Below are positions 18,215 to 59,217 of a stretch of 64,000 nucleotides of DNA, one piece after another. Location of the stretch: positions 18,380 through 82,379 of IMG/VR virus record IMGVR_UViG_3300000944_000006, one strand, 5' to 3'. The translations under genes and the position numbers were made by a program. This DNA is from a virus. Lineage: Duplodnaviria; Heunggongvirae; Uroviricota; Caudoviricetes. The first letter of the stretch is position 1, and each line of letters opens with the position of its first letter. The notes under the pieces are model-generated. The model was not told the DNA's origin and made no database searches. It worked only from the letters and a program-made list of their open reading frames with translations.

Positions 18215-18574
18215 TTAATGTATAGCGGTTGTTGGCGAAAGCACATCGAAGACTTTCTTGCATGTGTATTTATAAACCATGCCATTATCCCCATCTAGCT
18301 TTTGTTCTACGCCCATTTCATAATGTGGTGATGTAGCAGACATAGATGCTTCTGTTAGTTCAAAATGCTGTGACATGCCAAAATATGTCACAGACGATGT
18401 GTTTGCACATTGTATCGCTGACAGGATAGTCATATCCGATAGCAATTTCTGCATGAATACAGGACGTTGATAGATATCCGAAACTGAAAAGGTTATATTT
18501 CCAAGACGTTTTCGAATATCCGTCTTTTCGTCCATTTCATCGGCATAATCCATTAAATGTTCTTTTGTATTCAT
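18215..18574 (-). CDS. hypothetical protein (119 aa)
   Basis: ORF. Confidence 0.45.
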   Translation of the reverse strand: MNTKEHLMDYADEMDEKTDIRKRLGNITFSVSDIYQRPVFMQKLLSDMTILSAIQCANTSSVTYFGMSQHFELTEASMSATSPHYEMGVEQKLDGDNGMVYKYTCKKVFDVLSPTTAIH

Positions 18575-20736: not shown

Positions 20737-21100
20737 GTCTTTGCGTAACCGTGTCTACAAATCGAAAATCTTCAAATGTTAATTCGACTGTATGTGAAGG
20801 AAAATTGAAAGATGTGCTATGTATAGTTGACACACAAAGAATAGCTTCAAAATATAAAATAGATTTTTCTTTGTTAAAATGATTTATAACACGTCTTAGA
20901 ATTGAATTTGCGAAGTCAGTGTTCATTTGTTCATCGCTCGTAGGAAAAATATGTGCATAAATCTTGTGCGTACCTACAAAATAACTAACCATAACATTGC
21001 CACTATCTGTAATAATGACATCCCATGCAGTAGAAAAATCTATTTTAAATTTTTGCGGCGTTTCTAACATGGTTGAAATCTTTCTTTTCTTTAAAAGCAC
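20723..21100 (-). CDS. small protein, MYKYKI-family-like (QKFKIDFST)
   Basis: N-terminal region similar to the neighbouring gene. Confidence 0.4.
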   Translation of the reverse strand: MLLKKRKISTMLETPQKFKIDFSTAWDVIITDSGNVMVSYFVGTHKIYAHIFPTSDEQMNTDFANSILRRVINHFNKEKSILYFEAILCVSTIHSTSFNFPSHTVELTFEDFRFVDTVTQRHVQI

Positions 21101-24391: not shown

Positions 24392-24468
24392 TGGTACGCG
24401 AGGCAAGATTCGAACTTGCGATAGTTCCGTTATGAGCGGAAAGCTTTAGACCACTTAGCTACTCGCGC
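24392..24468 (-). tRNA. tRNA-Met or tRNA-Ile2 (anticodon CAU), CCA encoded
   Basis: Hand-folded cloverleaf: acceptor GCGCGAG/CTCGCGT, anticodon stem TTCCG/CGGAA, loop CTCATAA, T-arm GCAAG-TTCGAAT-CTTGC. 77 nt. Not initiator-like. Confidence 0.7.
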
Positions 24469-24482
24469 ACGACATATAAATT

Positions 24483-24529
24483 TGGAGCGAACAACGGGAC
24501 TCGAACCCGTATATCCGCTTGGTGTTGTT
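24483..24529 (-). pseudogene. tRNA 3' half remnant (T-arm GGGTTCGAGTCCC + acceptor 3' strand + CCA-like end), no 5' half
   Basis: Only 47 nt separate the flanking tRNAs. It contains a perfect T-arm and a 6-bp AACAAC/GTTGTT stem but no D-arm or anticodon arm. Confidence 0.4.
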
Positions 24530-24604
24530 TGGCATGCCCGACAGGACTTGAACCTGTGACCCCAGATTAAAAATCTGATGTTCTACCAACTGAACTACGG
24601 GCAT
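24530..24604 (-). tRNA. tRNA-Lys (anticodon UUU)
   Basis: Acceptor ATGCCCG/CGGGCAT, D-arm GTTC-AGTTGGTAG-AAC, anticodon stem TCAGA/TCTGG with loop TTTTTAA, T-arm ACAGG-TTCAAGT-CCTGT, discriminator G + CCA. Confidence 0.7.
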
Positions 24605-25909: not shown

Positions 25910-26324
25910 TCTTAACCTTGTTAAAATAAAAGCTGTCGCCGTTCACGTAGTATTTATAATTAAACTTATCAACAATTTCTTTTGCGAAGCGTTCATAGAT
26001 AATGAATTTCTTTTCTGTTCCGCCGCTTGTTGTGAAATAGAAGCTATTTGGACAGTTTTCAGTGATGTAAGCGAAGATATGGTTACGAACAGTAGCAAAG
26101 ACCTTAAGAGGGTTTTTTATGCGGTTCCCGTAACTTTTCGTTGAAGAGAATGTCCCAAAGAATTCTGTTTCATGTGTGATGAATGGCATACCATGCTTAT
26201 CGTATCCGCCAATGATATAGAACGTTATGTCACGGTCTTTTACTTCGAAGACATAATCTGTTCCATCAACAGTAAAGGCTTTTAAAACATGCTTAGTCAT
26301 AATAATATCGCATTTCTCCATCAA
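25902..26324 (-). CDS. hypothetical protein overlapping the RSH gene start by 8 nt (candidate partner/antitoxin)
   Basis: Translationally coupled gene immediately upstream of the RSH gene. Confidence 0.45.
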   Translation of the reverse strand: MMEKCDIIMTKHVLKAFTVDGTDYVFEVKDRDITFYIIGGYDKHGMPFITHETEFFGTFSSTKSYGNRIKNPLKVFATVRNHIFAYITENCPNSFYFTTSGGTEKKFIIYERFAKEIVDKFNYKYYVNGDSFYFNKVKNA

Positions 26325-26365: not shown

Positions 26366-27193
26366 TTAGCTAAGATTTTCGAAAATATGCTTAAAGGATG
26401 GTAAAGATATGTCACAGCTTTCGACAGTATATTTCTTTTCACGGTCTTTAGGGCGGAAGTTTTTCTTTCTCATGATGGTTGTAGCAACTAAATCAAATTC
26501 TTTCTTAGAATTATCCCATTTTAAAAAGAATGGGCTGTTAACATTTGTCTTAAGGTCTGTAAGCACAGCACCTATGTCCTTGTGTCTGTTACCTGACTTG
26601 TTTATGTTTTTACCATGCTTTTTAAACGCTTTTATAAACAGGTCTTTTAATTCTTCTATAGTAATTTGCTTACCATTTCGAGAATCATTTAATCTGTCAA
26701 TAAAATGACGTGTAAATTCAATATCAATATCTAAGTTTTTCCACACGCGGTCAAGATAGTTTTCAAGTTCTTTTAACTGCTTTCTTGTGACAGGCGGGTC
26801 TTTTGATTCAAAAATAGTTTTTGAAAATGACTTTGGAAATTTATGTGCAAGACTTAAAAGACGTTCTATAGGTGTTGCTACAAGATATACAGCTATCTTT
26901 TCATCTGGATTTTCATACATCACGCCCATATATCTATGATGTCCATCAAGAATTTTCTTGTCTGAAGAAACGATTAAAGGCTTCTTCATAATTTCTTTAA
27001 CGCCCTTTTCTTTAATCAATCGAGCAAATTGTTGTATCTTCATGTGATTAAAATCAGATTGTGTTGGTTTAAGATTTCCTACGCGCACATATGTTTTGAT
27101 AGTTCGTATATTATGCTGCGTTTTAAGCCATTTAATAAAATCTTTAGCATGGGCCGATTTTATCTGGGGCATGTCTTTACGTTTGATGTCCAT
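26366..27193 (-). CDS. ParB/Srx-like nuclease domain protein
   Basis: LKPTQSDF...KKILDGHHRY matches the ParB N-terminal nuclease-domain signature (L-x-P-T-Q ... DGHHR). Confidence 0.6.
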   Translation of the reverse strand: MDIKRKDMPQIKSAHAKDFIKWLKTQHNIRTIKTYVRVGNLKPTQSDFNHMKIQQFARLIKEKGVKEIMKKPLIVSSDKKILDGHHRYMGVMYENPDEKIAVYLVATPIERLLSLAHKFPKSFSKTIFESKDPPVTRKQLKELENYLDRVWKNLDIDIEFTRHFIDRLNDSRNGKQITIEELKDLFIKAFKKHGKNINKSGNRHKDIGAVLTDLKTNVNSPFFLKWDNSKKEFDLVATTIMRKKNFRPKDREKKYTVESCDISLPSFKHIFENLS

Positions 27194-30030: not shown

Positions 30031-30606
30031 TTAAAGTTGGCTACGAATCGTTCCGTGGTCGTTCAAGCAAGGGATTTTCATATCATCAATTTTGATATAG
30101 GCGGTTTCTTTTCCAAGAAATTCTTGTTTGCAAACTTCAACGCCGTTCCAATCAATATAACCATATTCAGGGTTTTTAGTAAGGGCTTCAACACTTGCTG
30201 TCAATGATTCAAATGTCCGTTCGCGACGAGCAAAAACATAGTCAGCGCCGCTTGAAATCAACACAGCACCTTCTACAGGGGCTTCGTTTTCTTGGCTTTC
30301 GACATATCCCATACTACCAGTTGTTCCTTGCACAACAGCTATAGACGCTGTTCCGTCAGGATGTAGCCACATCTTTTTGTAATAGGCCATATCAATCATA
30401 CCATCAAAACCTTTACCACTAAAAGCGTTGATAATTTCTTCAACTTCAGACTGCTTAGGCCCGTCTGTGTAAGAAACGTTAATAGATGCGCCACCTGCGT
30501 ATTTTTCAGACCGAACTGAAAACTTCGTTTCTGGGTATTTTGATTTTAAAGTCTTACGAATGATTTTCGCAATTTCGACAACAGATTTATAAACAGCTTC
30601 TGCCAT
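30031..30606 (-). CDS. hypothetical protein (about 191 aa), expressed from promoter cassette copy D
   Basis: Start set at MAEAVYK with GGAGAA 8 nt upstream. Confidence 0.5.
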   Translation of the reverse strand: MAEAVYKSVVEIAKIIRKTLKSKYPETKFSVRSEKYAGGASINVSYTDGPKQSEVEEIINAFSGKGFDGMIDMAYYKKMWLHPDGTASIAVVQGTTGSMGYVESQENEAPVEGAVLISSGADYVFARRERTFESLTASVEALTKNPEYGYIDWNGVEVCKQEFLGKETAYIKIDDMKIPCLNDHGTIRSQL

Positions 30607-30695
30607 AACATTTTCTCCATTTTTGCTACGAACTATAATTATCACACTATGTTGTGTATTGCAACACTTATTTTGATTTATTTTTAAATTTATCT
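30606..30695 (-). promoter_or_regulatory. early promoter/leader cassette copy D (TTGCAA, palindrome TGTTGTGTATTGCAACA)
   Basis: A 34-nt stretch AAATAAATCAAAATAAGTGTTGCAATACACAACA is identical to copy B (50855..). The leader is homologous to copies A and C. Confidence 0.6.
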
Positions 30696-35102: not shown

Positions 35103-35741
35103 TCAAACTATATTTGGCATGTCGTTATAAAAATCTACAAAGACATCATATACGTCTGCAAGAGCAACAAAATCACAAGACGCATCATCTATACCATCAC
35201 TGTTTAAATCTGCTGTGCTATTAGTTGTCACAAGTATTCCTAAAGGTTCTCCATATTCAGAAACAACAGGCGAACCAGACATTCCACCACCTACAGGCTG
35301 ATAATATATATGTTCATAGGCGTCATGCGACAATATAAGTGGTGGATTTTCCATTTTGGCTATCCAAGTAGGTGTTACATAACCATCAGAACCAGAAACA
35401 TCTCTTTTGTAATGAACGCGCATAACACGTTCTGAAAGATGCCCTGAAGCATGGGGGTATCCCCACGTATAAAGCCTTTCCCCGCGTTTTGGTTCGCGTG
35501 GTCTAGCCATAGAAGATAAATTACAACCGATTAAAGCTGCGTCTATAACACCTGTTCCTGCCATTATTTCTCCGCTCACAAATGGTGGTAGTTTACGTTC
35601 TTGTTCTTTTAAAACATGCATAGCAGTTACCCAACCACCTGCCCATTGCCAATATGTTCCAGACGCTTCTACACGCTTTGATGCGTGGAAATGCTTTTTT
35701 ATTATAAATCCAAAGTCTTCAGGTCTTTTCATCACAATCAT
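35103..35741 (-). CDS. trypsin/chymotrypsin-like serine peptidase
   Basis: Candidate catalytic His in TAMHVLKE and an oxyanion/Ser motif GGGMSGSPVV (GDSGGP-like). Locally GC-richer codon usage. Confidence 0.5.
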   Translation of the reverse strand: MIVMKRPEDFGFIIKKHFHASKRVEASGTYWQWAGGWVTAMHVLKEQERKLPPFVSGEIMAGTGVIDAALIGCNLSSMARPREPKRGERLYTWGYPHASGHLSERVMRVHYKRDVSGSDGYVTPTWIAKMENPPLILSHDAYEHIYYQPVGGGMSGSPVVSEYGEPLGILVTTNSTADLNSDGIDDASCDFVALADVYDVFVDFYNDMPNIV

Positions 35742-37061: not shown

Positions 37062-37138
37062 TGGCACACCTAACAGGACTCGAACCTGTAACATCCTGCT
37101 TAGAAGGCAAGCACTCTATCCAGTTGAGTTATAGGTGT
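37062..37138 (-). tRNA. tRNA-Arg (anticodon UCU), CCA encoded, followed by a U-run
   Basis: Acceptor ACACCTA..., D-loop TAACTCAACTGGATAGAGT, anticodon stem CTTGC/GCAGG with loop CTTCTAA, T-arm GGTTCGAGTCC. 77 nt. TTTTTTTATAGG follows the 3' end on the minus strand. Confidence 0.7.
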
Positions 37139-40978: not shown

Positions 40979-41245
40979 TTACGACTTCCCATAAAGAATT
41001 TCATATGCGGCGATAAGATGGTCGACGGCATTTTCAAATTGATATTCAGAAGATATACCCGCTTTACGAATACGGGCTTTGATGCTTTTTAAATCTTTAA
41101 TAGATTTATTTTTTACAGCGAAGTCAATAGAACGATACATGCCCGAAAATTCATGCATGTTGTTAGGTGTTTTAGATGCTCCCAGACGTTCGTTAATTTC
41201 ACGAACTTCATCAAGCCTATGTTTAAGTGTATTGTTATTGCTCAT
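40979..41245 (-). CDS. hypothetical protein (88 aa)
   Basis: ORF. A TATAAATA box (41251-41258, minus strand) lies 5 nt upstream of the ATG. Confidence 0.45.
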   Translation of the reverse strand: MSNNNTLKHRLDEVREINERLGASKTPNNMHEFSGMYRSIDFAVKNKSIKDLKSIKARIRKAGISSEYQFENAVDHLIAAYEILYGKS

Positions 41246-41602: not shown

Positions 41603-41875
41603 ATGGCTTTTAAGTTCGAAAATATTGCTGAAATAGGTGAAACTATTAAATCATTTAGTTTTAAACCATTTCCAGATAGAGAAGACATGTATGTCCAAGG
41701 TAAAGTTATTGCCAAAGGTGATATAAATCATCCTACGCATGGTAACTACTATAAAGGATATACGGTCATAGCAGAAGTTTCAACAGATGGTAATATCAAA
41801 CAAGGCGACACCTTCTATGTTCCGTTTGAACTTTCTTTTATGGACTTTGATGAACGTGTTTCTAAAGTTGACTAA
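41603..41875 (+). CDS. hypothetical protein (90 aa) expressed from cassette copy A
   Basis: MAFKFENIAEIGE. Start ATG placed 8 nt after GGGAGAA. Confidence 0.55.
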   Translation: MAFKFENIAEIGETIKSFSFKPFPDREDMYVQGKVIAKGDINHPTHGNYYKGYTVIAEVSTDGNIKQGDTFYVPFELSFMDFDERVSKVD

Positions 41876-42447
41876 AGTGAAGTAGCAAGTCCAGTATGCT
41901 TTTCTATAGACTTCAAAAGCATATCGTTATATATGCCTTCGTCTTTAGATTTTGTTTTAACAGACGTTCCTCTTACAGAAAGATATTCAACATCATATAA
42001 ATCCATTGACGTAAGTGTTATACGCACGACATTAACGCCTTTTGAATTTCTTCCTATGCGAAATTGTAGGCCATCATTAGAACCAACAAGTTTTTTTGCT
42101 CCTATCATATAAAGGGCTTTGTTGCCAATCTGCCTAACGATTTCTTTCGAAACAGTCATATTAGTAGCTTCGTTTAAACTTGTTTGTGATACTTTACCTG
42201 TTTTAATAGGGTTACTTCCGACAACATATGTTTTTAAAGAACCTGTGCCTTTATATATTTTATATTGAGTGCCAGACTTTATGTTATATTTTTTAACAGC
42301 AGATTTGGCTTTTTCATTTAAACTTTCCAAGGAAAATTCGACTACTTTGTTAATGTTTCCAGAAAATTCACACACATATACTGTTTTATCAGAAGATTTT
42401 CCTTCACGAACAAGTTCTAATTTTTCAACCAATAGTTTATGTGTCAT
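41872..42447 (-). CDS. hypothetical protein (191 aa)
   Basis: ORF. Confidence 0.5.
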   Translation of the reverse strand: MTHKLLVEKLELVREGKSSDKTVYVCEFSGNINKVVEFSLESLNEKAKSAVKKYNIKSGTQYKIYKGTGSLKTYVVGSNPIKTGKVSQTSLNEATNMTVSKEIVRQIGNKALYMIGAKKLVGSNDGLQFRIGRNSKGVNVVRITLTSMDLYDVEYLSVRGTSVKTKSKDEGIYNDMLLKSIEKHTGLATSL

Positions 42448-42448
42448 A

Positions 42449-43945
42449 TTATATTTTCTCCCACCTATCCGTTATAGGGCGTCCTACAGGGGCCATAGAA
42501 AAGTTTTTGTATCCATACTTAGATATAAGATTAACAATGTTCTTAACGTACTCATGATTGCAGTCAGACACCAAACGATTTACTAAACCATGTTCATCAA
42601 TATATTCCAGTGTTAAAACACAATGGTCGTAATCATGTGAATGGTCGTCATTAATTGAACATACAGTAAGACGTAGCGCATCTTTGGGGAAGTTGTAATC
42701 CTGTCTAAGACGATAATAAACTTCCAATGCCATGTCTTCGCAGTTATGTCCTAAAATACCATTTTCAAAAACAAATGTAGACGTTCCTGCTACTGTTATA
42801 TCGTAACACTTCTTCACGCCATTAGAAGTAATATCTTTAGTTTTTATCCTAGTTTGCCCAAGACCTTCAAAACCATAGTCTTTTTGATGTGAAGAATTTT
42901 TGTTATATATTACTCTATATATAGGCTGTGTTCCAGAACCGCCATGTTTCTCTTGCGTGTAAATTCTAGCAGACTTACCAACACGCAGTAAAGCGGCCTG
43001 TATCCATTCAGCAAATTTTTTACATGACGTTGAATATGTTTTATCAGGTTCCGTACCCCATCCACCGTTACTAGATTTTACATGATAATGTCCATCACCT
43101 AAAAAATATCCTTCAAGTATATAATTTAGACATACTTCTGGAAGATTTAAGTATTTGTCCATACGAATATCAAAAGAATTTTCCTTAAGTGGTTTTAAGA
43201 AATCCTTAAACCAAGACTTCAAAAATCTTACACAAGGAACACCAGAATTATTTTTAAATAATGTATAAGGAATTTTATATTTATCTAAAATAGGAAGAAT
43301 AAATTCAGGAATGTCATGTCCAGATGTAGAAACTTTACTAATTTTATTACTTCCCTGCGGACGGTCTACCCATCCTTCTGCAAGATAATGTCCCACAACA
43401 AACCAAATATCGTCATCAAGAACATTCTCAATTTCTGTGTATGGTAGATTTAAAGCACACGGAACATATTCCCAATGAACACTCTTTCCATCAATAATTT
43501 CTTTCAATTTTCTTTTTGTGTATCCGTTTTGTTGTTGTTTTTCTTTAGACCACATATTATGATTTTCTGTAACAACAATTTCATTTCCGTTATGAAACGG
43601 TACAGTAAAGGTTTCTAAATTTCCTTTATCCATTTTATTTATGATAACTTTATCAATATATTTTTTTTCGACAAAATCATAAGACATACAAACATCACCT
43701 ATTTGTGCATCTTTGATTGGAACAGCTACATATTCATCATTACGTTTTAACCATATTTTTTGATTTTCTTCTACACAATCACCTAATAGAATAGGTCTGC
43801 CAAAGAAATCCACATCAACAGTAGGACGCGTCCAGTGTTCAGGTACTGCCCAATTATTTTGGTCTGAACGCCATACGAAAATAGATTTAACATCCTCATG
43901 TACTTTTTTAAAAGTAGCTACCTGTGCGTGTGTAAGTTTTAACAT
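42449..43945 (-). CDS. intein-containing protein: 153-aa extein resembling a papain/transglutaminase-like Cys hydrolase, split by a 345-aa LAGLIDADG intein
   Basis: Intein blocks: C at N-junction (LLGD/CVEENQ), VVTENHNMW (T-x-x-H block B), two LAGLIDADG motifs (FVVGHYLAEGWV, ILEGYFLGDGHY), C-terminal YDITV...FENGILGHN followed by C. Spliced extein junction GDCEDMA (G-x-C-x-x-x-A) plus downstream HSHDYDH suggests a Cys-His-Asp hydrolase. Confidence 0.6.
   Translation of the reverse strand: MLKLTHAQVATFKKVHEDVKSIFVWRSDQNNWAVPEHWTRPTVDVDFFGRPILLGDCVEENQKIWLKRNDEYVAVPIKDAQIGDVCMSYDFVEKKYIDKVIINKMDKGNLETFTVPFHNGNEIVVTENHNMWSKEKQQQNGYTKRKLKEIIDGKSVHWEYVPCALNLPYTEIENVLDDDIWFVVGHYLAEGWVDRPQGSNKISKVSTSGHDIPEFILPILDKYKIPYTLFKNNSGVPCVRFLKSWFKDFLKPLKENSFDIRMDKYLNLPEVCLNYILEGYFLGDGHYHVKSSNGGWGTEPDKTYSTSCKKFAEWIQAALLRVGKSARIYTQEKHGGSGTQPIYRVIYNKNSSHQKDYGFEGLGQTRIKTKDITSNGVKKCYDITVAGTSTFVFENGILGHNCEDMALEVYYRLRQDYNFPKDALRLTVCSINDDHSHDYDHCVLTLEYIDEHGLVNRLVSDCNHEYVKNIVNLISKYGYKNFSMAPVGRPITDRWEKI
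42743..43777 (-). mobile_element. LAGLIDADG homing-endonuclease intein (about 345 aa)
   Basis: Boundaries computed from junctions ...PILLGD|CVEEN and ...GILGHN|CEDMA. Confidence 0.6.
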
Positions 43946-43946
43946 A

Positions 43947-44813
43947 TTACTTCGTCAGACTCCAAAATTTATTCATAAGTATATTGAAGTCTTTAGACGT
44001 TCCTGTATTAACAATCTTTTCTACATTAGCAATTGCCTTAGGCGACTTAAGTTGTTTGAAAACTTGCGTCACAAGATTGGCAGATTGCGCGTCTACCAAA
44101 ACTTCTTTCTTATCAGAAAATTTAATTTTCATTGCTTGGTGACGCTTTGTGATATCAAAGATTTGGTTAAGATTTGTGTCTTTAGTTTCGTTTAAAGATT
44201 CTTGCAAAAGGTCTTTTTCTTTAAGAAGTGCTTTTACTCTTTTAATAACATCAGAATCTGTGATAGAATCGGTTTTATATTGTTGGTTTAATTCTCCAAC
44301 TTTTGTACTAACCATAAATTTATTTTTTATGAAATTATTAAGCATTTTAGCGGTTGCGACTTTTTTTGAATCTGTCATGCCAATAAAAATTTTAAACTTT
44401 TTTAAAGATATTGCTCCTGCAAAGTAGTCATCCATAGCCATTAAAGCGCCTTTACTATCTACACCATAATTACCACTTGTTTTGAAGTTTTTTGTTTGTG
44501 CTATTATTTTAGATTCGTTTAACATAGACGATTGAACGACTTTACCAGTTCCTTCCTTCACTTCTTCTAAACGACTTTCAAAAAGTTTCGTAGGAAATGT
44601 AAATCCGTCATATTCGTATTTTTCTGTTTTATTTTCTTCGTTCATTTTTTTATTTTTCCAAGTAGCTATTACTTTACCTTTATCTAACAAGTTTACAACT
44701 TTATGTAGACCAATTTTAGCATGGTCAAATTCAACTTTTGCCATACGTCCTATAGAAAATGTTCCTAACGACTTCGTTTCACCGTATTTGTCGGTTGCTT
44801 TTACCTCATACAT
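43947..44813 (-). CDS. structural-module protein related to the downstream leader-bearing trio (shares the LG-x-x-G repeat unit), lacks the N-terminal leader
   Basis: Start set at MYEVKATDKYGE. Segment KYGETKSLGTFSIGRMAKVEFDH resembles EKYFLGVKGHSGTAMLFEYN of the 44818 gene. Confidence 0.45.
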   Translation of the reverse strand: MYEVKATDKYGETKSLGTFSIGRMAKVEFDHAKIGLHKVVNLLDKGKVIATWKNKKMNEENKTEKYEYDGFTFPTKLFESRLEEVKEGTGKVVQSSMLNESKIIAQTKNFKTSGNYGVDSKGALMAMDDYFAGAISLKKFKIFIGMTDSKKVATAKMLNNFIKNKFMVSTKVGELNQQYKTDSITDSDVIKRVKALLKEKDLLQESLNETKDTNLNQIFDITKRHQAMKIKFSDKKEVLVDAQSANLVTQVFKQLKSPKAIANVEKIVNTGTSKDFNILMNKFWSLTK

Positions 44814-44817
44814 TTGA

Positions 44818-45156
44818 TTACAAAAACTTCTTAAGGATAGAAGATGTTTTCTTAGTGAGAACAATATCACTATATCTTTTGTTGTTATATTCAAAAAGCA
44901 TAGCTGTTCCGCTATGACCTTTAACACCTAAAAAATATTTTTCACCCACTTCTAAAACAACTGAATTTTTATTTTCTTCTACTTTGTCACCTTTAAAATT
45001 TTTAAAACGAATTGGTTTCCCTACACGACCTTTGTTTAATTTCACATACATGTCGCGTAAATCTAAGTCTGTTTTAATGTTTTCTCTCAAAACGTCTTCA
45101 TCGTCATTATTTGATGAACGCATTTCTACAAGATGTTGTTTAATATTCTTTGTCAT
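44818..45156 (-). CDS. putative capsid-targeted internal protein 1 (N-terminal MTKNIKQHLVE/MR leader)
   Basis: N-terminus conserved with the 45376 and 45671 genes and ends in L-x-E, the T4 prohead protease cleavage motif. Confidence 0.5.
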   Translation of the reverse strand: MTKNIKQHLVEMRSSNNDDEDVLRENIKTDLDLRDMYVKLNKGRVGKPIRFKNFKGDKVEENKNSVVLEVGEKYFLGVKGHSGTAMLFEYNNKRYSDIVLTKKTSSILKKFL

Positions 45157-45164
45157 GTTATTTC

Positions 45165-45374
45165 CTATCCTTCTTCATCACTCACGCACAATTCGCTCTG
45201 TGGATTATCTTCGCAGAATAATCTTGCACCGTAAGGGGCTGTGATTGTAGTGTTATCTCTTATGGCAGTATCTTCACTACTTCCTTTGGTTGTGGCACAC
45301 CCTAATGAAGACGCTGCAACCATAAGACAAACGAATAAAAAACAAAGTGATTTTAATTTAAAATTCTTGAACAT
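45165..45374 (-). CDS. small lipoprotein
   Basis: Signal peptide with lipobox SSLGC. Confidence 0.45.
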   Translation of the reverse strand: MFKNFKLKSLCFLFVCLMVAASSLGCATTKGSSEDTAIRDNTTITAPYGARLFCEDNPQSELCVSDEEG

Positions 45375-45375
45375 G

Positions 45376-45696
45376 TTATTTCCTAAATATTCTTCCAGAA
45401 TTAAAGATTATACCTTCGTCTTTAAGATAATCTTTATAGTGCGAATACTCTTCTACAAATTCATCATAAGCCTTTTCGACTTTTTTTATGCGATTTAAAG
45501 CTTTACGTGACTTTCTAACTTTAAATTCTTTTTTAAGATTTTGTACATCTTTTCTAAGTTCGAAAACTACGTTGTCAAATTTTTCGACAACGTTATCACC
45601 AGAAATCCCGTTAGTTAAACCTTCATCAAGACGTATTTCTGCAAGATGTTCGTGGATTTTCTTTGTCATGTTATTTTTGATTCTCTTCTTTAACAT
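45376..45696 (-). CDS. putative capsid-targeted internal protein 2 (MTKKIHEHLAE/IR leader)
   Basis: Shared N-terminal leader. Confidence 0.5.
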   Translation of the reverse strand: MLKKRIKNNMTKKIHEHLAEIRLDEGLTNGISGDNVVEKFDNVVFELRKDVQNLKKEFKVRKSRKALNRIKKVEKAYDEFVEEYSHYKDYLKDEGIIFNSGRIFRK

Positions 45697-46660
45697 ATTC
45701 AGGTGTTTTATAATTAGATTTAGTGTTTTTATTACCTAGCATATATGCTTCGCCAAGTGCGTCTTGAACAGACGGGGAAAACTTTAATTTATATTTCTTT
45801 GCGATTTTTTCCAAAGCGTCACTAAAGGAAACTTTCTTACCTTCGTTCAAAGTACCATCACTTTTTTGCTTTTTAGCGACTTTAGGATTATCAACAACAC
45901 GTCCAACAGCAGCTTTACGTGCAACATGAACTTGGTAGCCGTTGCGACCAATAATTCCATAACCTTTACGCGACTTTAAGAAGTTGTTTGCATCACTTTC
46001 TGTGTTGAAACAATATGTCTGATACATTTTACCATCTTTTTTAAATACGGAACGAACATCACCATCAGAAGCAGATTGTATTTTATTCCATTCCGTAGGT
46101 TTTACAGGTTCGTTTTCGTCAAGAGAAACTTCTTCTTTGAAGTATTCAACTTTACTGTGCGAAATCATTTGACGATAATTACCAGATTTTTTAGGATAGT
46201 CTCTTTCACTTACGCGCGAAGGATTAATTTCTTTCCAAGAATTATTTTGCTTTCCAAGAAATTCGCCTAGTGCATTAGCATTTTTAAAAACTTTAACTTT
46301 ATATCTAGGACGACGACCACTTACAGTCATTTTTTCAAATTCTTTTTCTGCGGCATAAAATTTATTCTCGTTCAGATACCCATCATCAGATTGTTTGACA
46401 GTTACGTTATCACCGCCTTCATTATCTTTAGCAACATGTATCATTTCACCTTGTTTGCCAATAACACCAAGCTTATCACCGCCATTACCAACGATTTTTT
46501 CTATATATGAATTAGCAGCAGATTCGGAATTAAATTTAATAGTATCAAAGATTTTACCATTCTTTTCGAATGTTGACGTAACGCCACAATCAATTTTTTC
46601 TTTGTTAGGGGATTTCTTTGCAGAACGCATTTCCCAAAGGTGTTCGCGAATATTCTTCAT
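45671..46660 (-). CDS. putative capsid-targeted internal protein 3 (MKNIREHLWE/MR leader) with internal duplication
   Basis: Shared leader. Two internal repeats (FDTIKFNSESAANSYIEK...IHVAKDN and YQTYCFNTESDANNFLKS...VHVARKA). Confidence 0.5.
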   Translation of the reverse strand: MKNIREHLWEMRSAKKSPNKEKIDCGVTSTFEKNGKIFDTIKFNSESAANSYIEKIVGNGGDKLGVIGKQGEMIHVAKDNEGGDNVTVKQSDDGYLNENKFYAAEKEFEKMTVSGRRPRYKVKVFKNANALGEFLGKQNNSWKEINPSRVSERDYPKKSGNYRQMISHSKVEYFKEEVSLDENEPVKPTEWNKIQSASDGDVRSVFKKDGKMYQTYCFNTESDANNFLKSRKGYGIIGRNGYQVHVARKAAVGRVVDNPKVAKKQKSDGTLNEGKKVSFSDALEKIAKKYKLKFSPSVQDALGEAYMLGNKNTKSNYKTPEYVKEENQK

Positions 46661-46715
46661 TTTATGTCTAAAGCCTTTTTATATTAAAATACATTATATA
46701 TTTATAATGTTTATT

Positions 46716-47063
46716 TTATTGGCTTGAAAGACCTTGAAGAATCGCTGATTGAATGCCTGCTACATCGCCCGCAAGGATAAGATTATCGAAAGCACCACTT
46801 TTAACTTGTGCTTCTATTGTTTTATAAGTGCTTTCAAAGTTAATAAGGACACGCTTTGTGCCTTCTTCAAGAACAACACCTGTGATAAAATCTGCTGCAA
46901 AGGCTTCAATATATTGTGTATATGTAACAGGATTAAGCATCAAAGGATAGACGCCTTCTTCATCTGGGTCTTTCGATGTATCTTCTATTTCAAAAGACCA
47001 TCCACGACTGATTGCTAGGATAATTGCTATATTATCTGGTAATTCGAAAGAAATTTCTGCCAT
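46716..47063 (-). CDS. hypothetical structural-module protein (115 aa)
   Basis: ORF in the late block. Confidence 0.45.
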   Translation of the reverse strand: MAEISFELPDNIAIILAISRGWSFEIEDTSKDPDEEGVYPLMLNPVTYTQYIEAFAADFITGVVLEEGTKRVLINFESTYKTIEAQVKSGAFDNLILAGDVAGIQSAILQGLSSQ

Positions 47064-47069
47064 ATTATA

Positions 47070-48596
47070 TTACGCCTGTACCCATGTGTCTGTTCCACCA
47101 CTATTTATAACTCTTCTATATAGTATTCCATCATCACCTTCGCGAATTTCTGCCCGAATAGCTTCTGGTGTCCATCCAAGCATAAGAGTTTCATCGTCAT
47201 TATCTGCAATACCCACAGAAGTTGTTCCGTTTTGACTTCTTATAGAAATTGTCTCTTGGAAATGGTCTGCGCCATTTTGAACAACAACAGTAATAGGTAC
47301 GTTAGCAATAATTACACCTGCGCCTAACGTACCTACAAGTGTATTTGTGGCTTCTGCGTCATTTGATATTAGACCTGCTGTAGGATGATTTTGGTCTTCT
47401 TTAGAATTAACTGTGACATTTGTACGATTAAGTGGTACGGTATATCTTAACACTAAAGAACTTGTTGCTGCATCCCATTCATAGACTTTAGCTTCACCTA
47501 CATATGGTGATGCAATAGCAACACCTGAATTGCCCCCATCGCCATTGTCGGCAATATAAAATGGTTGTGCAACAACTTGTGACATAGCTGTAACAGGCAT
47601 AGCAGGTGATGCTTCAAGACCTGCACTATCTGCGCCTGAATACCATGTACCAAGACCATTAATAAGTGTTCTTGTAGCGCCATTTGGTTCGTAATCTGAA
47701 TCTGTTGCGCCTGTGATAGAATCAATAGGTTGTGGCGATGCAGGATTTACAGTAAAACTTCCACTCACACCGTCCCTAACATAATAGTTGAAAACAGTTC
47801 CTGAAAAAGGTGCTGAAGCGTCACCAGAACGCGGCCAAGATATTAAATCATTTGATAGTGGCATGATAAGACGGCTATCATAATATTGATTAGAATCCAT
47901 ATTTGCGTTTGTACATGCCATGACGGGATTAGCCCCTTCAAGAATATATTCACGAACGCCTGTGCCGTGCAATTCGATATATTCCCAAGGGGCTAGTTTT
48001 ATATCTTCTTGTCCGTCAATTGTATTACCAAAACCGTCTGTTAATTTAATTGTATTTGCAAGAGGGCCGTTAACAACATGTATCAAACCTTCGTTTAAAT
48101 TTGTATTAGAACCAAAGTTTCTAAACCCAAAGAAGAATGTAAAATCAAAACCTAAACCGTATGACAATAGTGGCATAGGCGATTCATTACTGCCTGTAAC
48201 TTGGTCAGAAACACCATAAAAACCTTGTGTAGATGTGATGATAGCGCCATTAGAAAGACCTGTAAAAACGATAGGTTCGCCAAGAGACATAAATTCTCGA
48301 TAAAGAACGTTCCCCGCATTAAAGTCTGCGCCAGATGCATAAACTTCTATTGTATTTCCGTTTCCTAAAGAGACGCCTTGAACTTTACCAGTGTCCGTGT
48401 AACCAACAGCCAAAACAGTTAGCGCAGGTTGCCCTGCATTTGCTAAAAGCTGTTGTTCAAGACCTAGTGTAGACCCTGAAGCAATATCTCCTACATCAGA
48501 AATAAGTGCTACAGGGTTTTCGACAGTTGCAGCAGGATTTCCACCCACTTCAAATGCCGATGTACCGTCTTTAGTAATATCGACTAAAGAACGCAT
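47070..48596 (-). CDS. putative tail fibre/structural protein (Gly/Ser/Thr/Asn-rich, 508 aa)
   Basis: Composition and size typical of fibre proteins. Much higher GC and small-residue content than neighbouring genes. Confidence 0.45.
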   Translation of the reverse strand: MRSLVDITKDGTSAFEVGGNPAATVENPVALISDVGDIASGSTLGLEQQLLANAGQPALTVLAVGYTDTGKVQGVSLGNGNTIEVYASGADFNAGNVLYREFMSLGEPIVFTGLSNGAIITSTQGFYGVSDQVTGSNESPMPLLSYGLGFDFTFFFGFRNFGSNTNLNEGLIHVVNGPLANTIKLTDGFGNTIDGQEDIKLAPWEYIELHGTGVREYILEGANPVMACTNANMDSNQYYDSRLIMPLSNDLISWPRSGDASAPFSGTVFNYYVRDGVSGSFTVNPASPQPIDSITGATDSDYEPNGATRTLINGLGTWYSGADSAGLEASPAMPVTAMSQVVAQPFYIADNGDGGNSGVAIASPYVGEAKVYEWDAATSSLVLRYTVPLNRTNVTVNSKEDQNHPTAGLISNDAEATNTLVGTLGAGVIIANVPITVVVQNGADHFQETISIRSQNGTTSVGIADNDDETLMLGWTPEAIRAEIREGDDGILYRRVINSGGTDTWVQA

Positions 48597-48605
48597 GGCA
48601 GTTTA

Positions 48606-49265
48606 TTACGCTAGTACGATAACACGTATTTCGTTTGTAGAAGGTGCTACAGCGAAAGATACGTCCACCGTGTTTGCATCTACACGTGTAGAATCTGCAA
48701 TGACAGTTTCGCCAGTAGCAACGTCTACGAACTGTACCATAACATCAAGTGTTGCAAGGTTATGCGTAAGTGTATAAGATGTTAACGAACCATCACCAAC
48801 AGTTTCTTGATAACGTTTGATAGACAGAATATTTGCAATATCGTCTTCGTTATCACGAATAAGTGCTGTAAATTCAGCAATTGTATCAACAGTTGCATCG
48901 ACAGCATCATTTGTAAATGCGGCTGTAATACGACCATCAATAACAGTTACAAGGTCTGTGATTTGGGCAGATGTGTGTGTATGACCTACAAGCGCGAACG
49001 CAGAAGGTTCAAGACCACGGAATAAGTCAGCATCGAGGCCAGAGCCTTGTCCATCAACAGTTAAAAGCGCATTAAGAATATCTGTTGCAGGCATGTCGCC
49101 TGAAATTGGATTCCACTGAACACCGTCTGCATATTTGATAAGACTTTCCGTTGTATTATAATAAATACGGCCTGCTGTTGGTACGGCAGGGTCTGTTGGT
49201 AGGTTTTCGAGAACAAGATTCAATATTGAATTTAGAACCATGTCCAATTTAGTTAAGTGTCTCAT
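48606..49265 (-). CDS. putative tail fibre protein with tail-collar-like GHTHT motif
   Basis: ALVGHTHTSAQITDL resembles the conserved G-x-H-x-H segment of phage tail-collar fibre domains. Confidence 0.4.
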   Translation of the reverse strand: MRHLTKLDMVLNSILNLVLENLPTDPAVPTAGRIYYNTTESLIKYADGVQWNPISGDMPATDILNALLTVDGQGSGLDADLFRGLEPSAFALVGHTHTSAQITDLVTVIDGRITAAFTNDAVDATVDTIAEFTALIRDNEDDIANILSIKRYQETVGDGSLTSYTLTHNLATLDVMVQFVDVATGETVIADSTRVDANTVDVSFAVAPSTNEIRVIVLA

Positions 49266-54235: not shown

Positions 54236-54350
54236 GTGCGCGTAACCAAGCTGTGAAAATATCTTCGTCAGAAACTACAATATTATGCTTAGTCATAAGT
54301 TTCTGTAATTTTTGTATAATACTATGCTTCACAAGCAAAACATTCTCCAT
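54147..54350 (-). CDS. hypothetical protein downstream of nrdA
   Basis: Start set at internal MENVLLVK. Confidence 0.35.
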   Translation of the reverse strand: MENVLLVKHSIIQKLQKLMTKHNIVVSDEDIFTAWLRAHEGVWNDDVPDDFDNVMSKIIPHVNVHFE

Positions 54351-57135
54351 TTGATGCCTGAACACCTGCTTCAGACCGTATATAATATAATGACTTAATA
54401 TAAGGATTGACAAAAGCTTCTGAATGTATCATCGCAACATATTCTGGGTCTTCATCAGCAGATATATACAAATTTATAGATTGTGCTTGGTCAATATATT
54501 TTTGTCGTTGTGCCGCATAACGTATAATCGTCAATTGGTCAATCTCAAAAGCTGTTTTGAACAAAGCCTTTTCATCGTCACTAAAAAATTCTAAATGCTG
54601 AACAGACCCTTTATTATCGACAATGGAATCAATAATTGCATCTGTATATTGTCCATGCTTTTCAAGATATTCGATAAGAACTGGATTTATACGGTTCATT
54701 TTACCTGCGGCTGTACCTTGCGTATAAACATTTTTAGGAAATGGTGATATGCCTTCAGAAACACTACCACACACAATAGCAGATGATAGAGTAGGTGCTA
54801 CTGCCATAAGTGTAGCATTGCGTCGACCAAGACCCTTACAAGATTCTGGTTCACCTAATTCTGCGGCAAGCCATTCCGTAGCAGCTTCTGCTTGTACTTG
54901 GATATTTTTAAATATTTCCACATTTTTAAATTGCGCTTCAAGGCTTTCCCAAGGAATACCATTTTTCTGAAAATATGTGTGAAGACCGAGTGTGCCCAAG
55001 CCTAATGCACGGAAACGTTGTGTGAAACGAACGACTTTTTCAAGACCTTCCATATCTTTACCGCGCTGTATAAGGTCTTCGCAAACGCAATCTAAAAGAA
55101 CAATTGCTGTTTCAATCGCATTCGTATCTTTCCATTCATCATATTTTGCCAGATTCATAGACGATAGAACGCAAGAAAATGTATGTTCTTCATCAGAAGG
55201 TAGCGCAATTTCAGAGCAGTTAAATGTTTTCATGCCCTGTGCAATAAATATGTGTTCATCTGTATGTACAGTTGGACAATATACATCTTCTTTACCATAA
55301 TACTCTATAGATTTTATTTTGTAACCCTTTTTAGAATTATCACGATACTTTCGATTTTCTAAATGAACACCTTTTCGGGATAAAAATCCTGTATGTTTTT
55401 CGACAACCAAGCAATCATTTTTATTTCCTACAATAAGTCTCCAACAATCTTTTGTGTTATATAGCTTTTGTCCACCTTTTCCATCTGGCAATAATGATTC
55501 ACCTGCTTTTCTTAGTATTCGTATAGAAGTTTGAAGTCCTAAGTTTTGGAATAAAATTTGAAGTTCTTTAATAAAATCTAAGTTAATATCTGTGTATGAT
55601 AAATGTATAGGATTTCCTTTTGAAGGAGATACATTTATTGTACCATCTGCGTATAATAGCCCGCGAACATATTCCCATTGTGTCTTTTCGTCAGATTCCC
55701 ATATCCAAGAAGGGACATACCCTTTTTCAAAATTCAAGGCTTTTTTAAGAGTAGCAGAAGACAATGTTCTTTTTCTATGGCTTCCTTCGCGAACATGTGA
55801 TTCGCGAAACTTAGCAGGTGTTCTTCCGCGATATTTTCCAGTTTTTCCTATTTCATATTTATCGCATCCGTATTTGTAATGTATTCGGTCAAATTTTTCT
55901 TTGATTTCATTCTCTAAATCAAAATCATTTTCCCAAAGACACAGATGAATAGAATTTTTGTGTTGCGTTCCGTCCGATTGATACTGACCTAACAAAAATG
56001 CTTCATCTTGCATATCGGCATTTCCAAAAATACCTTTGTTAGTTTGAATTGCAATTTTATGACCTATGTTCAGGTCTTTCAATTCAATTCGTGTGATATT
56101 ATTTCTTGCATCAATAACAGGAAACCCATGATTATCCGTGGCTTTAATTTCCATTCCATTTTCTAATGTAACTTTATAAACATCTTGGTTTTCGCCACGT
56201 AAAATCATTTTTGTAGAATTTACCTTATTTTCGCCGTCAAATAATACCAAAGATTCATTTATATCATGAAGTTCTTTAGCTGTTAAATATCCATATGACG
56301 AAACTACGCGCGTATCACCTGTTATACAAAGATTAGAAGCTTTGATTAGCATACCACTATTTTTAATAGCAGGTGGTGCTAAATCATTCATGCGGTCAAT
56401 AAAACAAAAATATCCCTTGCCTGTAACAAGCTTACGCAACAACGCACGTTTAAAGCGAGAATTTGCTTCTTTGTCGCCATTCACTAATCGTGCAATAAAT
56501 TCATCAGAAATATTCCAACCAATATTTAAATCATCTGGATAATTTTTCATATGGTCGCAAATATCCCAAAAATCTCCATGTTCGATTGGAAGATAGCCTG
56601 CCCATGCACCGCGTCTCGAAGACCCTTGTGACACTTGAACTGCTGTATTAACATGTCCTTGGATAACAGGAACTACCCCATCTGCAACACCGTCTACACC
56701 ATATTTCTCGCCACGCGGACGTATATCCCCAAGATATGATGACGTTCCAAAGCCATATTTTGAAAGCATTGCCGTTTCTGTATAAGACCCAAAGAAACCT
56801 GCTATACTATCTGGTGTATAGTTTCCAGAACAGCTTACAGAAAGCCCTTTTTCCGTCCCTGTATTGGACATAACAGGCGTTGAAAGAGAAAGATAACCTT
56901 TCCACACAACATCAAAGAAACGCTTCTCCCAATGCTTAGAATTAGGCATATGGGCGGCGAGTGTTTTAGATATTCTCTTTAATTGCTCTTTATATGTTGT
57001 AGCTTCGAACAGATATTTTTGTTTGAACATAGACCATCCAATAGTTGTAAACCACATAGGAAGGTCGCCATCTTCTTGCATTTTTTTCCGCTCTTGCGAA
57101 AGTTCTTCATAAGTATTTTCGTTTAAATTATCCAC
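54322..57135 (-). CDS. nrdA: ribonucleotide reductase class I large subunit (no ATP-cone), interrupted by an intein at the active-site cysteine
   Basis: Extein junction ...IKASNL|CSEIALPS restores the catalytic SNLCSEI motif. C-terminal CFAC pair present. Extein about 567 aa. Confidence 0.8.
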   Translation of the reverse strand: MDNLNENTYEELSQERKKMQEDGDLPMWFTTIGWSMFKQKYLFEATTYKEQLKRISKTLAAHMPNSKHWEKRFFDVVWKGYLSLSTPVMSNTGTEKGLSVSCSGNYTPDSIAGFFGSYTETAMLSKYGFGTSSYLGDIRPRGEKYGVDGVADGVVPVIQGHVNTAVQVSQGSSRRGAWAGYLPIEHGDFWDICDHMKNYPDDLNIGWNISDEFIARLVNGDKEANSRFKRALLRKLVTGKGYFCFIDRMNDLAPPAIKNSGMLIKASNLCITGDTRVVSSYGYLTAKELHDINESLVLFDGENKVNSTKMILRGENQDVYKVTLENGMEIKATDNHGFPVIDARNNITRIELKDLNIGHKIAIQTNKGIFGNADMQDEAFLLGQYQSDGTQHKNSIHLCLWENDFDLENEIKEKFDRIHYKYGCDKYEIGKTGKYRGRTPAKFRESHVREGSHRKRTLSSATLKKALNFEKGYVPSWIWESDEKTQWEYVRGLLYADGTINVSPSKGNPIHLSYTDINLDFIKELQILFQNLGLQTSIRILRKAGESLLPDGKGGQKLYNTKDCWRLIVGNKNDCLVVEKHTGFLSRKGVHLENRKYRDNSKKGYKIKSIEYYGKEDVYCPTVHTDEHIFIAQGMKTFNCSEIALPSDEEHTFSCVLSSMNLAKYDEWKDTNAIETAIVLLDCVCEDLIQRGKDMEGLEKVVRFTQRFRALGLGTLGLHTYFQKNGIPWESLEAQFKNVEIFKNIQVQAEAATEWLAAELGEPESCKGLGRRNATLMAVAPTLSSAIVCGSVSEGISPFPKNVYTQGTAAGKMNRINPVLIEYLEKHGQYTDAIIDSIVDNKGSVQHLEFFSDDEKALFKTAFEIDQLTIIRYAAQRQKYIDQAQSINLYISADEDPEYVAMIHSEAFVNPYIKSLYYIRSEAGVQASNGECFACEA
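55219..56328 (-). mobile_element. LAGLIDADG homing-endonuclease intein in nrdA (370 aa)
   Basis: Starts CITGDTRVV, contains FLLGQYQSDGT and RGLLYADGT LAGLIDADG motifs, ends ...GMKTFN before Cys+1. Penultimate residue is Phe rather than His. Confidence 0.7.
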
Positions 57136-58129: not shown

Positions 58130-58173
58130 CGTTTATTATTGCCTTATTATTTTATTATTATTGGTCATATTAT

Positions 58174-59217
58174 TTATAGGTTTTTCCACTGTGTGAACTT
58201 GATTTTTGCATTTAATCCGACATAAGAATTGTCTAAAAAATATTGGTCTAAACCATCCTTTTCAACTTCACCTTGTAGTATCATATCATTTACATCTTTT
58301 GATTTTATATTGTGCGGTAAGAGAGTAACACGATATCCATCATCGATAGTTTTCTTGATATTTCGTAAAGTCTCTTTGTGACGAGTCTCATTATCAAAGA
58401 CTATACATAGCTGATTTTTTGGTATTACGTCTTTAACACGTCCGAATGAAGAACCAGATGCAGAAACAGCATTTCTAAAGAACATTGAATCGAATTGCCC
58501 TTCTGTCACAATAACTTTTTCGGACAAATTTATTTTGTCAAGATTGTATATTAGTGGTGCATTCTCATTCAACTTTACGTGAAGATATTTTATAGGGTGA
58601 TGTTTTTTAAGACTTCGCATAGAAAATCCTATCAAAACACCTTTACGATTTCGGTAAGGAATGATGATACGACCATCTTTACTATTCTTTAATTTCTCTT
58701 TGTATTTCGGAAGTATGTTAGACATCTTTGATATATCGTCCATATAATATAAGTCAGATATATCAGGCAACTTTCTTGCGTTTAAATAAGCCCGTGCAGG
58801 ATGGCTTCTTTCTAATTTCTGCACGGGCAGCATCAATTCATGAAGTACCGACTTTTCTTCTTCAATTACTACTGGCGCAAACACAGCATTTGTAAGGTCT
58901 ACATGTGTATCAGATTGTTTGATAGAAGACTTTCCTTTATTTAGATAAACATTTTTTACAACTTCATTGTAAATAGACGTGTCGAAATCTTTTAAGAAAA
59001 ATTGATATTTTTTGTGATATTCGCAGTTATGACATTTATACCAAAGGTTTTTGTCATGCGTGTTAACATATATGTATCCTCTTGCGCGAGTAGAAACACG
59101 CTTAGAGTCGCCACATATGGGACAAGAAAAGTTCCAAAGGTATGTATTTACCTTCTTAAAATTTTTAAGTTTGTACTGAATCATTGAAACTGATTCAGCA
59201 AGGTCATGTAATTCCAT
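58174..59217 (-). CDS. DNA primase, T4 gp61-like (zinc ribbon + TOPRIM)
   Basis: FSCPICGDSK...ARGYIY...YKCHNCEY zinc ribbon, VTEGQFDS and FDNETRH TOPRIM acidic motifs, SKDVNDMI block as in T4 gene 61 protein. Confidence 0.7.
   Translation of the reverse strand: MELHDLAESVSMIQYKLKNFKKVNTYLWNFSCPICGDSKRVSTRARGYIYVNTHDKNLWYKCHNCEYHKKYQFFLKDFDTSIYNEVVKNVYLNKGKSSIKQSDTHVDLTNAVFAPVVIEEEKSVLHELMLPVQKLERSHPARAYLNARKLPDISDLYYMDDISKMSNILPKYKEKLKNSKDGRIIIPYRNRKGVLIGFSMRSLKKHHPIKYLHVKLNENAPLIYNLDKINLSEKVIVTEGQFDSMFFRNAVSASGSSFGRVKDVIPKNQLCIVFDNETRHKETLRNIKKTIDDGYRVTLLPHNIKSKDVNDMILQGEVEKDGLDQYFLDNSYVGLNAKIKFTQWKNL

Follow-up and report, generated by a model that had tools for sequence, protein, structure and literature searches.

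What is the short N-terminal peptide that three neighboring genes of an uncultivated tailed phage have in common, and what might it do for the proteins that carry it? The question is raised by a gene cluster around positions 44,818 to 46,660 of a 64,000-nucleotide stretch of the IMG/VR record IMGVR_UViG_3300000944_000006 (Caudoviricetes; positions 18,380 to 82,379 of the record), which was analyzed over its whole length and is referred to here as the window. A preliminary description of the window had taken the shared N termini for candidate capsid-targeting sequences of internal proteins such as those of bacteriophage T4. By analogy with T4, we consider it probable that they are capsid-targeting propeptides of the internal-protein type, and the cluster is most likely a divergent new example of the known T4 packaging system and not a new kind of system.

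A shared leader peptide under selection

All genes of the cluster region are encoded on the minus strand. Three of them, designated genes A, B, and D, begin with a leader of 10 or 11 residues that ends in L-x-E, in essence as had been described. Gene A (46660..45671; 329 amino acids; start MKNIREHLWEMR) encodes the leader MKNIREHLWE (46631..46660) followed by MR, gene B (45669..45376; 97 amino acids; start MTKKIHEHLAEIR) encodes MTKKIHEHLAE (45637..45669) followed by IR, and gene D (45156..44818; 112 amino acids; start MTKNIKQHLVEMR) encodes MTKNIKQHLVE (45124..45156) followed by MR. The consensus is M-(T)-K-x-I-x-[EQ]-H-L-x-E, then x-R. In the six-frame translation of the window, the motif I..HL.E occurs exactly three times and the motif HL.E[MIL]R likewise three times, always at the N termini of A, B, and D. 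For a looser leader pattern, the internal rate of 1.65e-4 per residue corresponds to an estimated 0.2 chance matches, approximately, per 538 candidate ATG starts, and three adjacent ones were observed. The shared leader is not due to chance.

Orthologs of gene A in two metagenome contigs carry the leaders MKTIQEHLFE/QR (contig L001) and MKTIVTHLNE/QR (contig L107), where the slash stands after the last residue of the leader. In the window leaders and these orthologs, K, I4, H7, L8, E10, and R12 are invariant, and the putative propeptide would end in L-W-E, L-A-E, or L-V-E in the window and in L-F-E or L-N-E in the orthologs. The orthologs are about 48% identical, and the leader forms an island of conservation ahead of a stretch of approximately 30 residues that is variable and rich in indels in the alignment of A with its L001 counterpart. 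At the codon level, K, I, H, L, and R, hence five of these six residues, show synonymous differences, the x positions change the amino acid, and RNAalifold predicted no base pairs and no consensus RNA structure in five aligned start regions. Since synonymous changes have accumulated at invariant residues and no RNA structure is predicted in the start region, selection acts on the leader peptide. In the AlphaFold model of the gene A protein, the leader is predicted to be a short helix. A Sec or lipoprotein signal was considered as its identity and rejected because the leader is charged and not hydrophobic.

Match to the T4 capsid-targeting sequence

The capsid-targeting sequence of T4 is MKTYQEFIAE (PMC8442874). 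Read from the T4 DNA, it appears as MKTYQEFIAE/ARVG in IPII, MKTYQEFIAE/ASVV in IPIII, and MKTFKEFTSTTTPVSTITE/ATLT in IPI, with the motifs I-A-E and I-T-E, which conform to the gp21 cleavage motif (L/I)-x-E. Six of the 10 residues of the L001 leader MKTIQEHLFE are the same as in the T4 sequence, and the leader of gene A scores best against this sequence among the 538 candidate N termini of the window. In the suppressor mutagenesis of T4 by Mullaney and Black, as related in PMC9026906, targeting depended mainly on residues 4 and 7 and processing on residues 8 and 10. These four positions are the ones held by the invariant residues I4, H7, L8, and E10 here.

The likeness extends to environmental phages. 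An open reading frame (ORF)-start pattern, M-[TS]?-[KR]-x-[YFIWLVM]-x-x-[FYHW]-[ILV]-x-E, selected ipII and ipIII, and nothing else, in 16 kb of T4 DNA and matched many ORF starts in 80 T4-like IMG/VR loci anchored on the primase gene gp61 (e.g., MKTYKEFIKE, MKKFKDFVAE, and MKSFLEFIYE). Most of the environmental proteins with the pattern are basic, not all. One of the loci, L071, has a tandem set of leaders a few kilobases from gp61, namely, MKTFKTFLLE/GG, MKTYEELNEELIVE/A, and MKTFKQHLIE/SA, and the last of these links the T4 form to that of the window because KQHL[IV]E is common to it and gene D. According to PMC12373910 and PMC3012670, the ip genes of T-even phages have the leader alone in common, and it is the leader that serves to recognize them.

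A leader-like sequence was also seen inside a protein. KSFSKTIFE/S stands at the domain border of a two-domain protein of 275 amino acids (26366-27193, minus strand), which has the octamer TATAAATA, treated below, 6 nucleotides (nt) upstream of its ATG. The region of this sequence aligns with the N terminus of a free-standing ORF of 140 codons inside the leader-gene cluster of L071 (positions 2281-2703 of that locus; 40% identity over 131 residues).

Basic leader proteins with bodies not detectably related

Two claims of the preliminary description, that the bodies of the proteins share a repeated LG-x-x-G unit and that the ORF at 43947..44813 (gene E) is the same body without the leader, were not confirmed. 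BLASTP among A, B, D, and E detected no similarity past the leaders, and when a profile of the repeated domain of A was compared with B, D, and E by hhalign, the probability was below 1% in each case. Simple paralogy of the three leader genes was rejected because their bodies are not detectably related. The repeated unit, more precisely G-[VI]-IG-x-x-G, reflects an internal duplication of a domain of ~75 residues and is found within the gene A protein only. This protein consists of two copies of a ~55-residue beta-beta-alpha-beta-beta domain (approximately residues 25 to 80 and 200 to 250), a middle region, and a C-terminal region. Both copies are confidently folded in the AlphaFold model, with a predicted local distance difference test (pLDDT) score of about 90; the model of the gene D protein (pLDDT, 47.6) is unusable. 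Scans of the leader proteins against Pfam, PHROG, and NCBIfam returned no family at the curated thresholds.

The duplicated domain of A, with the motif F-N-[ST]-E-S-x-A-N-x-F…YG-[VI]-IG…HVA, belongs to a wide family (P0005-P0018) that has no Pfam model and spans small single-domain proteins as well as proteins of 600 to 900 amino acids.

In composition and size, the leader proteins resemble the T4 internal proteins. The predicted mature form of A has an isoelectric point (pI) of 9.5, that of B (86 residues) a pI of 9.3, and that of D (101 residues) a pI of 9.55, i.e., a range of 9.3 to 9.6; the full-length proteins contain 14.9%, 15.5%, and 15.2% lysine, respectively, hence about 15%. The values for T4 are a pI of 9.33 and 15% lysine for IPII and a pI of 9.54 and 13.5% lysine for IPIII.

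L-x-E sites at domain borders

The motif that ends the leader recurs within the cluster proteins. L-N-E is enriched about tenfold, with 6 occurrences in 1,114 residues compared to 9 in the 16,978 residues of the background (Poisson P = 3.6e-5); composition-preserving shuffles yielded a mean of 0.44, and none of 5,000 reached 6. L-x-E in general was counted 21 times, where the background rate predicts about 6.3 (P = 3e-6). In the gene A protein (minus strand), an L-N-E at residues 96 to 98 (46367..46375) follows directly after the first domain copy in a low-confidence linker, an L-D-E at residues 180 to 182 (46115..46123) directly precedes the second copy, and a further L-N-E at residues 271 to 273 (45842..45850) directly follows it. 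The internal L-x-E sites of A fall into modeled segments with pLDDT values of <50 between the folded domains. Ahead of the second domain copy, the orthologs have KLIE/QR and KLFE/AR at the equivalent place, which echo the ends of the leaders, and the site at residues 96 to 98 (YLNE/NKFYAAEKEF) aligns with TLFE/EGYAAEQEF, the end of a 25-residue N-terminal extension of a 338-amino-acid protein of L001. Gene E contains two internal L-N-E motifs (44514..44522 and 44187..44195, minus strand), and a 191-amino-acid protein further downstream has L-V-E at residues 6 to 8 and L-N-E at residues 43 to 45 and 91 to 93, the last directly before its C-terminal domain.

Judged from the sequences, this distribution suggests the pattern expected for protease substrates that are cut after L-x-E at several exposed linkers. 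In several members, the additional L-N-E and L-D-E motifs lie in disordered linkers where domains meet, and the larger proteins would therefore probably be cut into separate small domains in the manner of a polyprotein. It is conceivable, if rather doubtful, that the whole cluster is a polyprotein-style effector cassette, whose multidomain, leader-tagged basic proteins would first be taken up by the head and then be split at L-N-E linkers, so that a mixture of small independent domains is injected along with the DNA. Under such a scheme, domains, including the widespread beta-beta-alpha-beta-beta module, would move about among related phages, where they would stand behind a leader, inside a protein, or on their own.

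Relatives of the cluster

Close relatives are few. Megablast of the region against GenBank phages gave no nucleotide match, and a scan of GTDB genomes gave none either; scans of IMG/VR with gene A, with the peptidase encoded downstream of the cluster, and with a degenerate DNA pattern of the leader returned chance matches only. A word-index homolog search with gene A retrieved gene A itself and one relative, and the corresponding searches with the extein of the peptidase and with the leader alignment retrieved none. An exhaustive HMMER search of 1.84 billion representatives yielded three members of the lineage, namely, A itself, P0002, and P0003, together with P0004, the 338-amino-acid protein encoded beside P0002 in L001, which is similar to the middle region of A only. 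The lineage is rare.

The 3.7-kb contig L001, which encodes P0002, is syntenic with the window: a leader protein is followed by a lipoprotein, a protein with the middle domain of A, the counterpart of the window peptidase in intein-free form, and a protein of 144 amino acids, which itself starts with MSKIREQLAE. Domains have been shuffled between the window and L001.

Organization of the cluster

The preliminary description spoke of a tandem trio of late genes. The three leader ORFs are there, but the trio is not strictly tandem, since a gene for a 69-amino-acid lipoprotein without a leader (45374..45165, minus strand; lipobox LGC) stands between B and D. It could encode a spanin or a superinfection-exclusion protein. 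The lipoprotein is 44% identical to its counterpart in L001 (positions 779-991), with which it shares the motif PYGA-x-x-FC-x-DN-x-x-SELCV containing two cysteines.

Downstream of D, on the same strand, follow gene E (44813..43947; 288 amino acids; pI, 9.6; 16% lysine), which has no canonical leader, a gene for a transglutaminase-like cysteine peptidase (C93-like) with a LAGLIDADG intein (43945..42449), and the gene for the 191-amino-acid basic protein (42447..41872), whose conserved C-terminal domain of ~95 residues corresponds to phrog_9437. The C93 match of the peptidase is below the Pfam cutoff (16.7 versus 27 bits). Its intein sits exactly before the catalytic cysteine (…LLGD/C…GHN/CEDMALEVYY, with slashes at the intein borders), and the L001 ortholog (2052-2516) is free of the intein. 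Gene E is possibly a member of the cluster whose product is processed together with the leader proteins. A further basic protein of 88 amino acids (40979..41245, minus strand) has a weaker, 13-residue leader-like N terminus, MSNNNTLKHRLDE/VR, with TATAAATA 5 nt upstream.

The gaps between the genes downstream of D are just 0 to 5 nt long, and the sole sizeable intergenic gap of the cluster, 55 nt, lies upstream of gene A and contains TATAAATA (46699..46706, minus strand) at a distance of 38 nt from the gene. The cluster from 46660 to ~41872, including the leaderless basic proteins, may be read as a single, tightly packed minus-strand unit behind this motif. Upstream of gene A, at 46716..49265, there are three strongly acidic genes of the fiber or decoration type. 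They bear out in part the earlier statement that the cluster is located just upstream of the structural block, but the rest of the window contains no head genes; the remaining genes concern replication, nucleotide metabolism, and accessory functions.

Affiliation of the phage

Several features connect the window with T4-like phages. The primase encoded at 59217..58174 is a gp61 homolog (35 to 37% identity), and it matches 2,394 phage records in which the hosts of T4-like phages are dominant. The gene order gp61-nrdB-nrdA(intein) is the same as in the environmental T4-like locus L071, and several further genes of the window have homologs among the 80 gp61-anchored loci. The nrdA gene (54322-57135, minus strand), which encodes the large subunit of ribonucleotide reductase, is split by an intein with a LAGLIDADG endonuclease; the nrdA gene of L071 also bears an intein.

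The octamer TATAAATA, the T4 late-promoter consensus, is present within positions -60 to +3 of 11 of the 112 minus-strand gene starts, compared to 1.6 expected from shuffled upstream windows, and it is the most frequent of all 56 octamers composed of five A's and three T's. Upstream regions with the motif, when aligned, revealed no extended common element, and a scan for sigma-70 promoters and terminators between 40.5 and 50.5 kb gave results not above those for shuffled sequences. Other copies occur on the minus strand, e.g., at 47102-47109, 25951-25958, and 58171-58178. The spacings between TATAAATA and the ATG fall mainly into two classes, about 38 to 41 nt and ≤6 nt.

Elsewhere in the window, the minus strand encodes a 366-amino-acid protein (1437-2537) with 45 to 49% identity to a phage "cysteinyl-tRNA synthetase" (Sinorhizobium phage Phosso and Acinetobacter phage MD-2021a), whose match covers the first 324 of 473 PHROG profile positions only. 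It also encodes a nicotinamide phosphoribosyltransferase (21045-22448), a protein with an LPD29 domain (Pfam "Large polyvalent protein associated domain 29"; 30031-30645), and three tRNAs (Met, Lys, and Arg; 24392-24604 and 37062-37138).

How strong is the case for capsid targeting?

The core of the preliminary proposal, capsid targeting of the T4 type, stands up well. It is backed by the similarity to the T4 sequence, the conservation at functional positions, the selection on the peptide, and the charge and size of the proteins, and furthermore by T4-type synteny, the enrichment of TATAAATA, the intermediate environmental leaders, and the L-x-E sites at domain borders. The shared body and the strict tandem order that had been part of the proposal are wrong.

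A number of observations weigh against this interpretation. At positions 4 and 7, the leaders have I and H, compared with the aromatic residues Y/F and F in T4. The statistics of leader conservation are thin, as three lineage members were available for the comparison. Charge is weak evidence by itself because about 15% of the ORFs in the window are equally basic and rich in lysine. A Foldseek search with the model of the 329-amino-acid protein against PDB and BFVD found nothing with an E value below 0.03, and a cargo fold without a significant structural match provides no function that would back the role of an injected effector. Neither GenBank phages nor IMG/VR contained a close relative, and many window proteins have no phage relatives. 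The resolvase is RuvC-like and not T4-like, and just past the window there is a T5-A1-like "DNA transfer protein" (L026, 982-2631; phrog_1745, E = 7e-141). This protein, which has its best match in the Xanthomonas jumbo phage XacN1 (46.5%), is unexpected in a genome of the T4 type. The T4 affiliation is founded on a single module of replication genes and on a motif that resembles a promoter; with the gp61-nrd module and TATAAATA on one side and the A1-like and RuvC-like genes on the other, the phage is T4-related in a broad sense, which falls short of proof. Finally, the window and 10 kb beyond it contained no gene for a prohead protease, major capsid protein, portal, or scaffold. Since head genes are missing there, the protease and its cleavage specificity are assumed.

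Among the alternatives, the leader might be a docking or regulatory helix for a partner outside the capsid, such as a nearby phage protease, a chaperone, or a host target, and the L-x-E site would then be cut, if at all, in the cytoplasm. Two peptidases come into question, i.e., the transglutaminase-like cysteine peptidase (42449..43945), whose conserved gene directly follows the cluster in the window as well as in L001, and a trypsin-like peptidase 9 kb away (35103..35741), which scores above its Pfam threshold and has TATAAATA at its start codon; that the head protease was not seen also speaks for this alternative. Glu-specific endopeptidases occur in the trypsin-like fold class, and the second enzyme could in principle be of this specificity. 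LapG-type C93 peptidases, however, cut at di-alanine motifs in an N-terminal retention module, and no conserved di-alanine motif was noticed in the leader proteins (no dedicated scan was run), in which the conserved motif is L-x-E. A metagenome scan anchored on the C93-like gene found only two other loci, L024 and L025, which belong to unrelated phages; there, the gene stands behind tail genes and ahead of holin-like genes, and leader genes are absent from its vicinity. The detailed agreement of the leader with T4 at the functional positions would also go unexplained, and we regard a docking function as unlikely. The C93-like peptidase was rejected as the processing enzyme because no link to the leaders was found. 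The trypsin-like enzyme, a Trypsin_2-family serine peptidase of 212 amino acids (35103-35741, minus strand), scores 30.7 bits versus a cutoff of 27.6; TATAAATA overlaps its start codon, and it has no sequence relative in PDB.

The two other explanations place the conservation in the nucleic acid. The shared 5' ends could be the footprint of gene shuffling, with the ribosome-binding site and the first dozen codons acting as a recombination joint and the peptide itself being functionless. The three window copies are alike in DNA as well, two of them share start regions of the AGGAAATAACATG type with the lipoprotein gene, and a shuffling of domains is visible when the window is compared with L001; for the ip loci of T-even phages, called hyperplastic, recombination via conserved flanks is described (Repoila et al. 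1994, as cited in PMC12373910). Yet the invariant residues are maintained through synonymous substitutions at five of six positions, whereas substitutions at the variable positions are non-synonymous; in orthologs of ~48% identity, the leader stands out as conserved next to an indel-rich stretch; and the lipoprotein gene has the start-region DNA but not the peptide. A functionless joint is therefore very unlikely, and shuffling as such is compatible with capsid targeting rather than exclusive of it. That the 5' coding sequence is conserved for translational control at the RNA level, by a repressor site or a structure over the start codon, appears extremely improbable. AU-rich start regions are the targets of repressors of the T4 RegA type, and the leaders are AT-rich and start proximal, but conservation tracks amino acids and not nucleotides, no conserved upstream sequence was seen, and an RNA element was rejected as the explanation given that RNAalifold predicted no pairs.

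Proposed mechanism and implications

Following the T4 precedent, capsid targeting would proceed as follows. The leader, a short helix of 10 or 11 residues, would dock freshly synthesized basic protein to the scaffolding core during prohead assembly. A Glu-specific prohead protease, expected to be gp21-like as in T4, would cut after L-x-E and free the mature lysine-rich protein inside the head, and it may also cut the L-x-E linkers between domains. The mature pieces would remain with the DNA in the head and would probably pass into the host upon infection. That the proteins are packaged, cleaved, and ejected, which protease is involved, and whether they counteract host defenses are all points that we infer from T4, the last of them by pure analogy. 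In T4, the GmrSD enzyme that is inhibited differs among IPI, IPII, and IPIII (PMC12373910), and by this precedent the leader proteins would be good candidates for anti-defense functions.

If this interpretation is correct, the capsid-targeting tag of T4 is conserved far beyond the T-even phages and offers a sequence handle for packaged, probably injected, proteins of uncultivated phages. The enrichment of L-N-E at domain borders would be a second handle, and it hints at the delivery of some cargo in the form of multidomain precursors that can be cleaved. Should the polyprotein cassette exist, uncultivated T4-like phages could be searched in general for injected effectors by the signature of L-x-E-flanked domains. 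The I4/H7 variant of the leader would provide natural variation for the engineering of T4-style protein-packaging vectors. The known mechanism would remain unchanged, and its range would be extended.

Comparison with known systems

Head-internal proteins with propeptides, redundant cleavage sites after Glu, and several fragments are also known as inner-body proteins of giant phages, and to this extent these are alike. The cleavage motif in phiKZ, 201phi2-1, and SPN3US is S/A/G-x-E; to our knowledge, these phages, whose genomes are much larger, lack a shared leader of only 10 residues such as that of T4. In the present case, the sites are L-x-E and the source contig has a length of 151 kb. The inner-body and ejection proteins of the three giant phages are processed by prohead proteases related to gp21 (PMC5694885, PMC7411985, PMC9026906).

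A closer counterpart is provided by the ip loci of T4-like phages, T-even phages among them, which are hypervariable and in which the signal sequence serves to identify the ip genes (Repoila et al. 1994, as cited in PMC12373910). Here as there, an array of unrelated genes has the leader alone in common, and the content of domains and genes varies between relatives, as between the window and L001; L071, with MKTFKTFLLE, MKTYEELNEELIVE, and MKTFKQHLIE, is arranged likewise. Unlike the ip loci, the cluster has a lipoprotein gene and an intein-bearing peptidase gene interleaved, and it belongs to a lineage far from Tequatrovirus (30 to 37% gp61 identity; no nucleotide match to a GenBank phage) with a shifted leader consensus.

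The T4 internal proteins themselves differ from the window proteins in the aromatic residues at positions 4 and 7, which are replaced by I and H, and in the lack of the extra Thr that follows Met in two of the three window leaders. The cargo of the window has no sequence relationship or detectable fold relationship to IPI, IPII, and IPIII, and its largest member is a multidomain protein with additional L-N-E motifs at the domain borders. The common ground is nevertheless extensive. In both cases, an N-terminal tag of 10 or 11 residues is attached to otherwise unrelated, small basic proteins of one phage, begins with M-K-T/N, and ends in L/I-x-E, after which x-R or x-S comes next; the T4-functional positions 4, 7, 8, and 10 hold conserved residues. 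The mature proteins are predicted to have sizes of about 10 to 36 kDa, a pI of 9.3 to 9.6, and about 15% lysine, and their genes are sited among accessory genes in a phage with replication genes of the T4 type.

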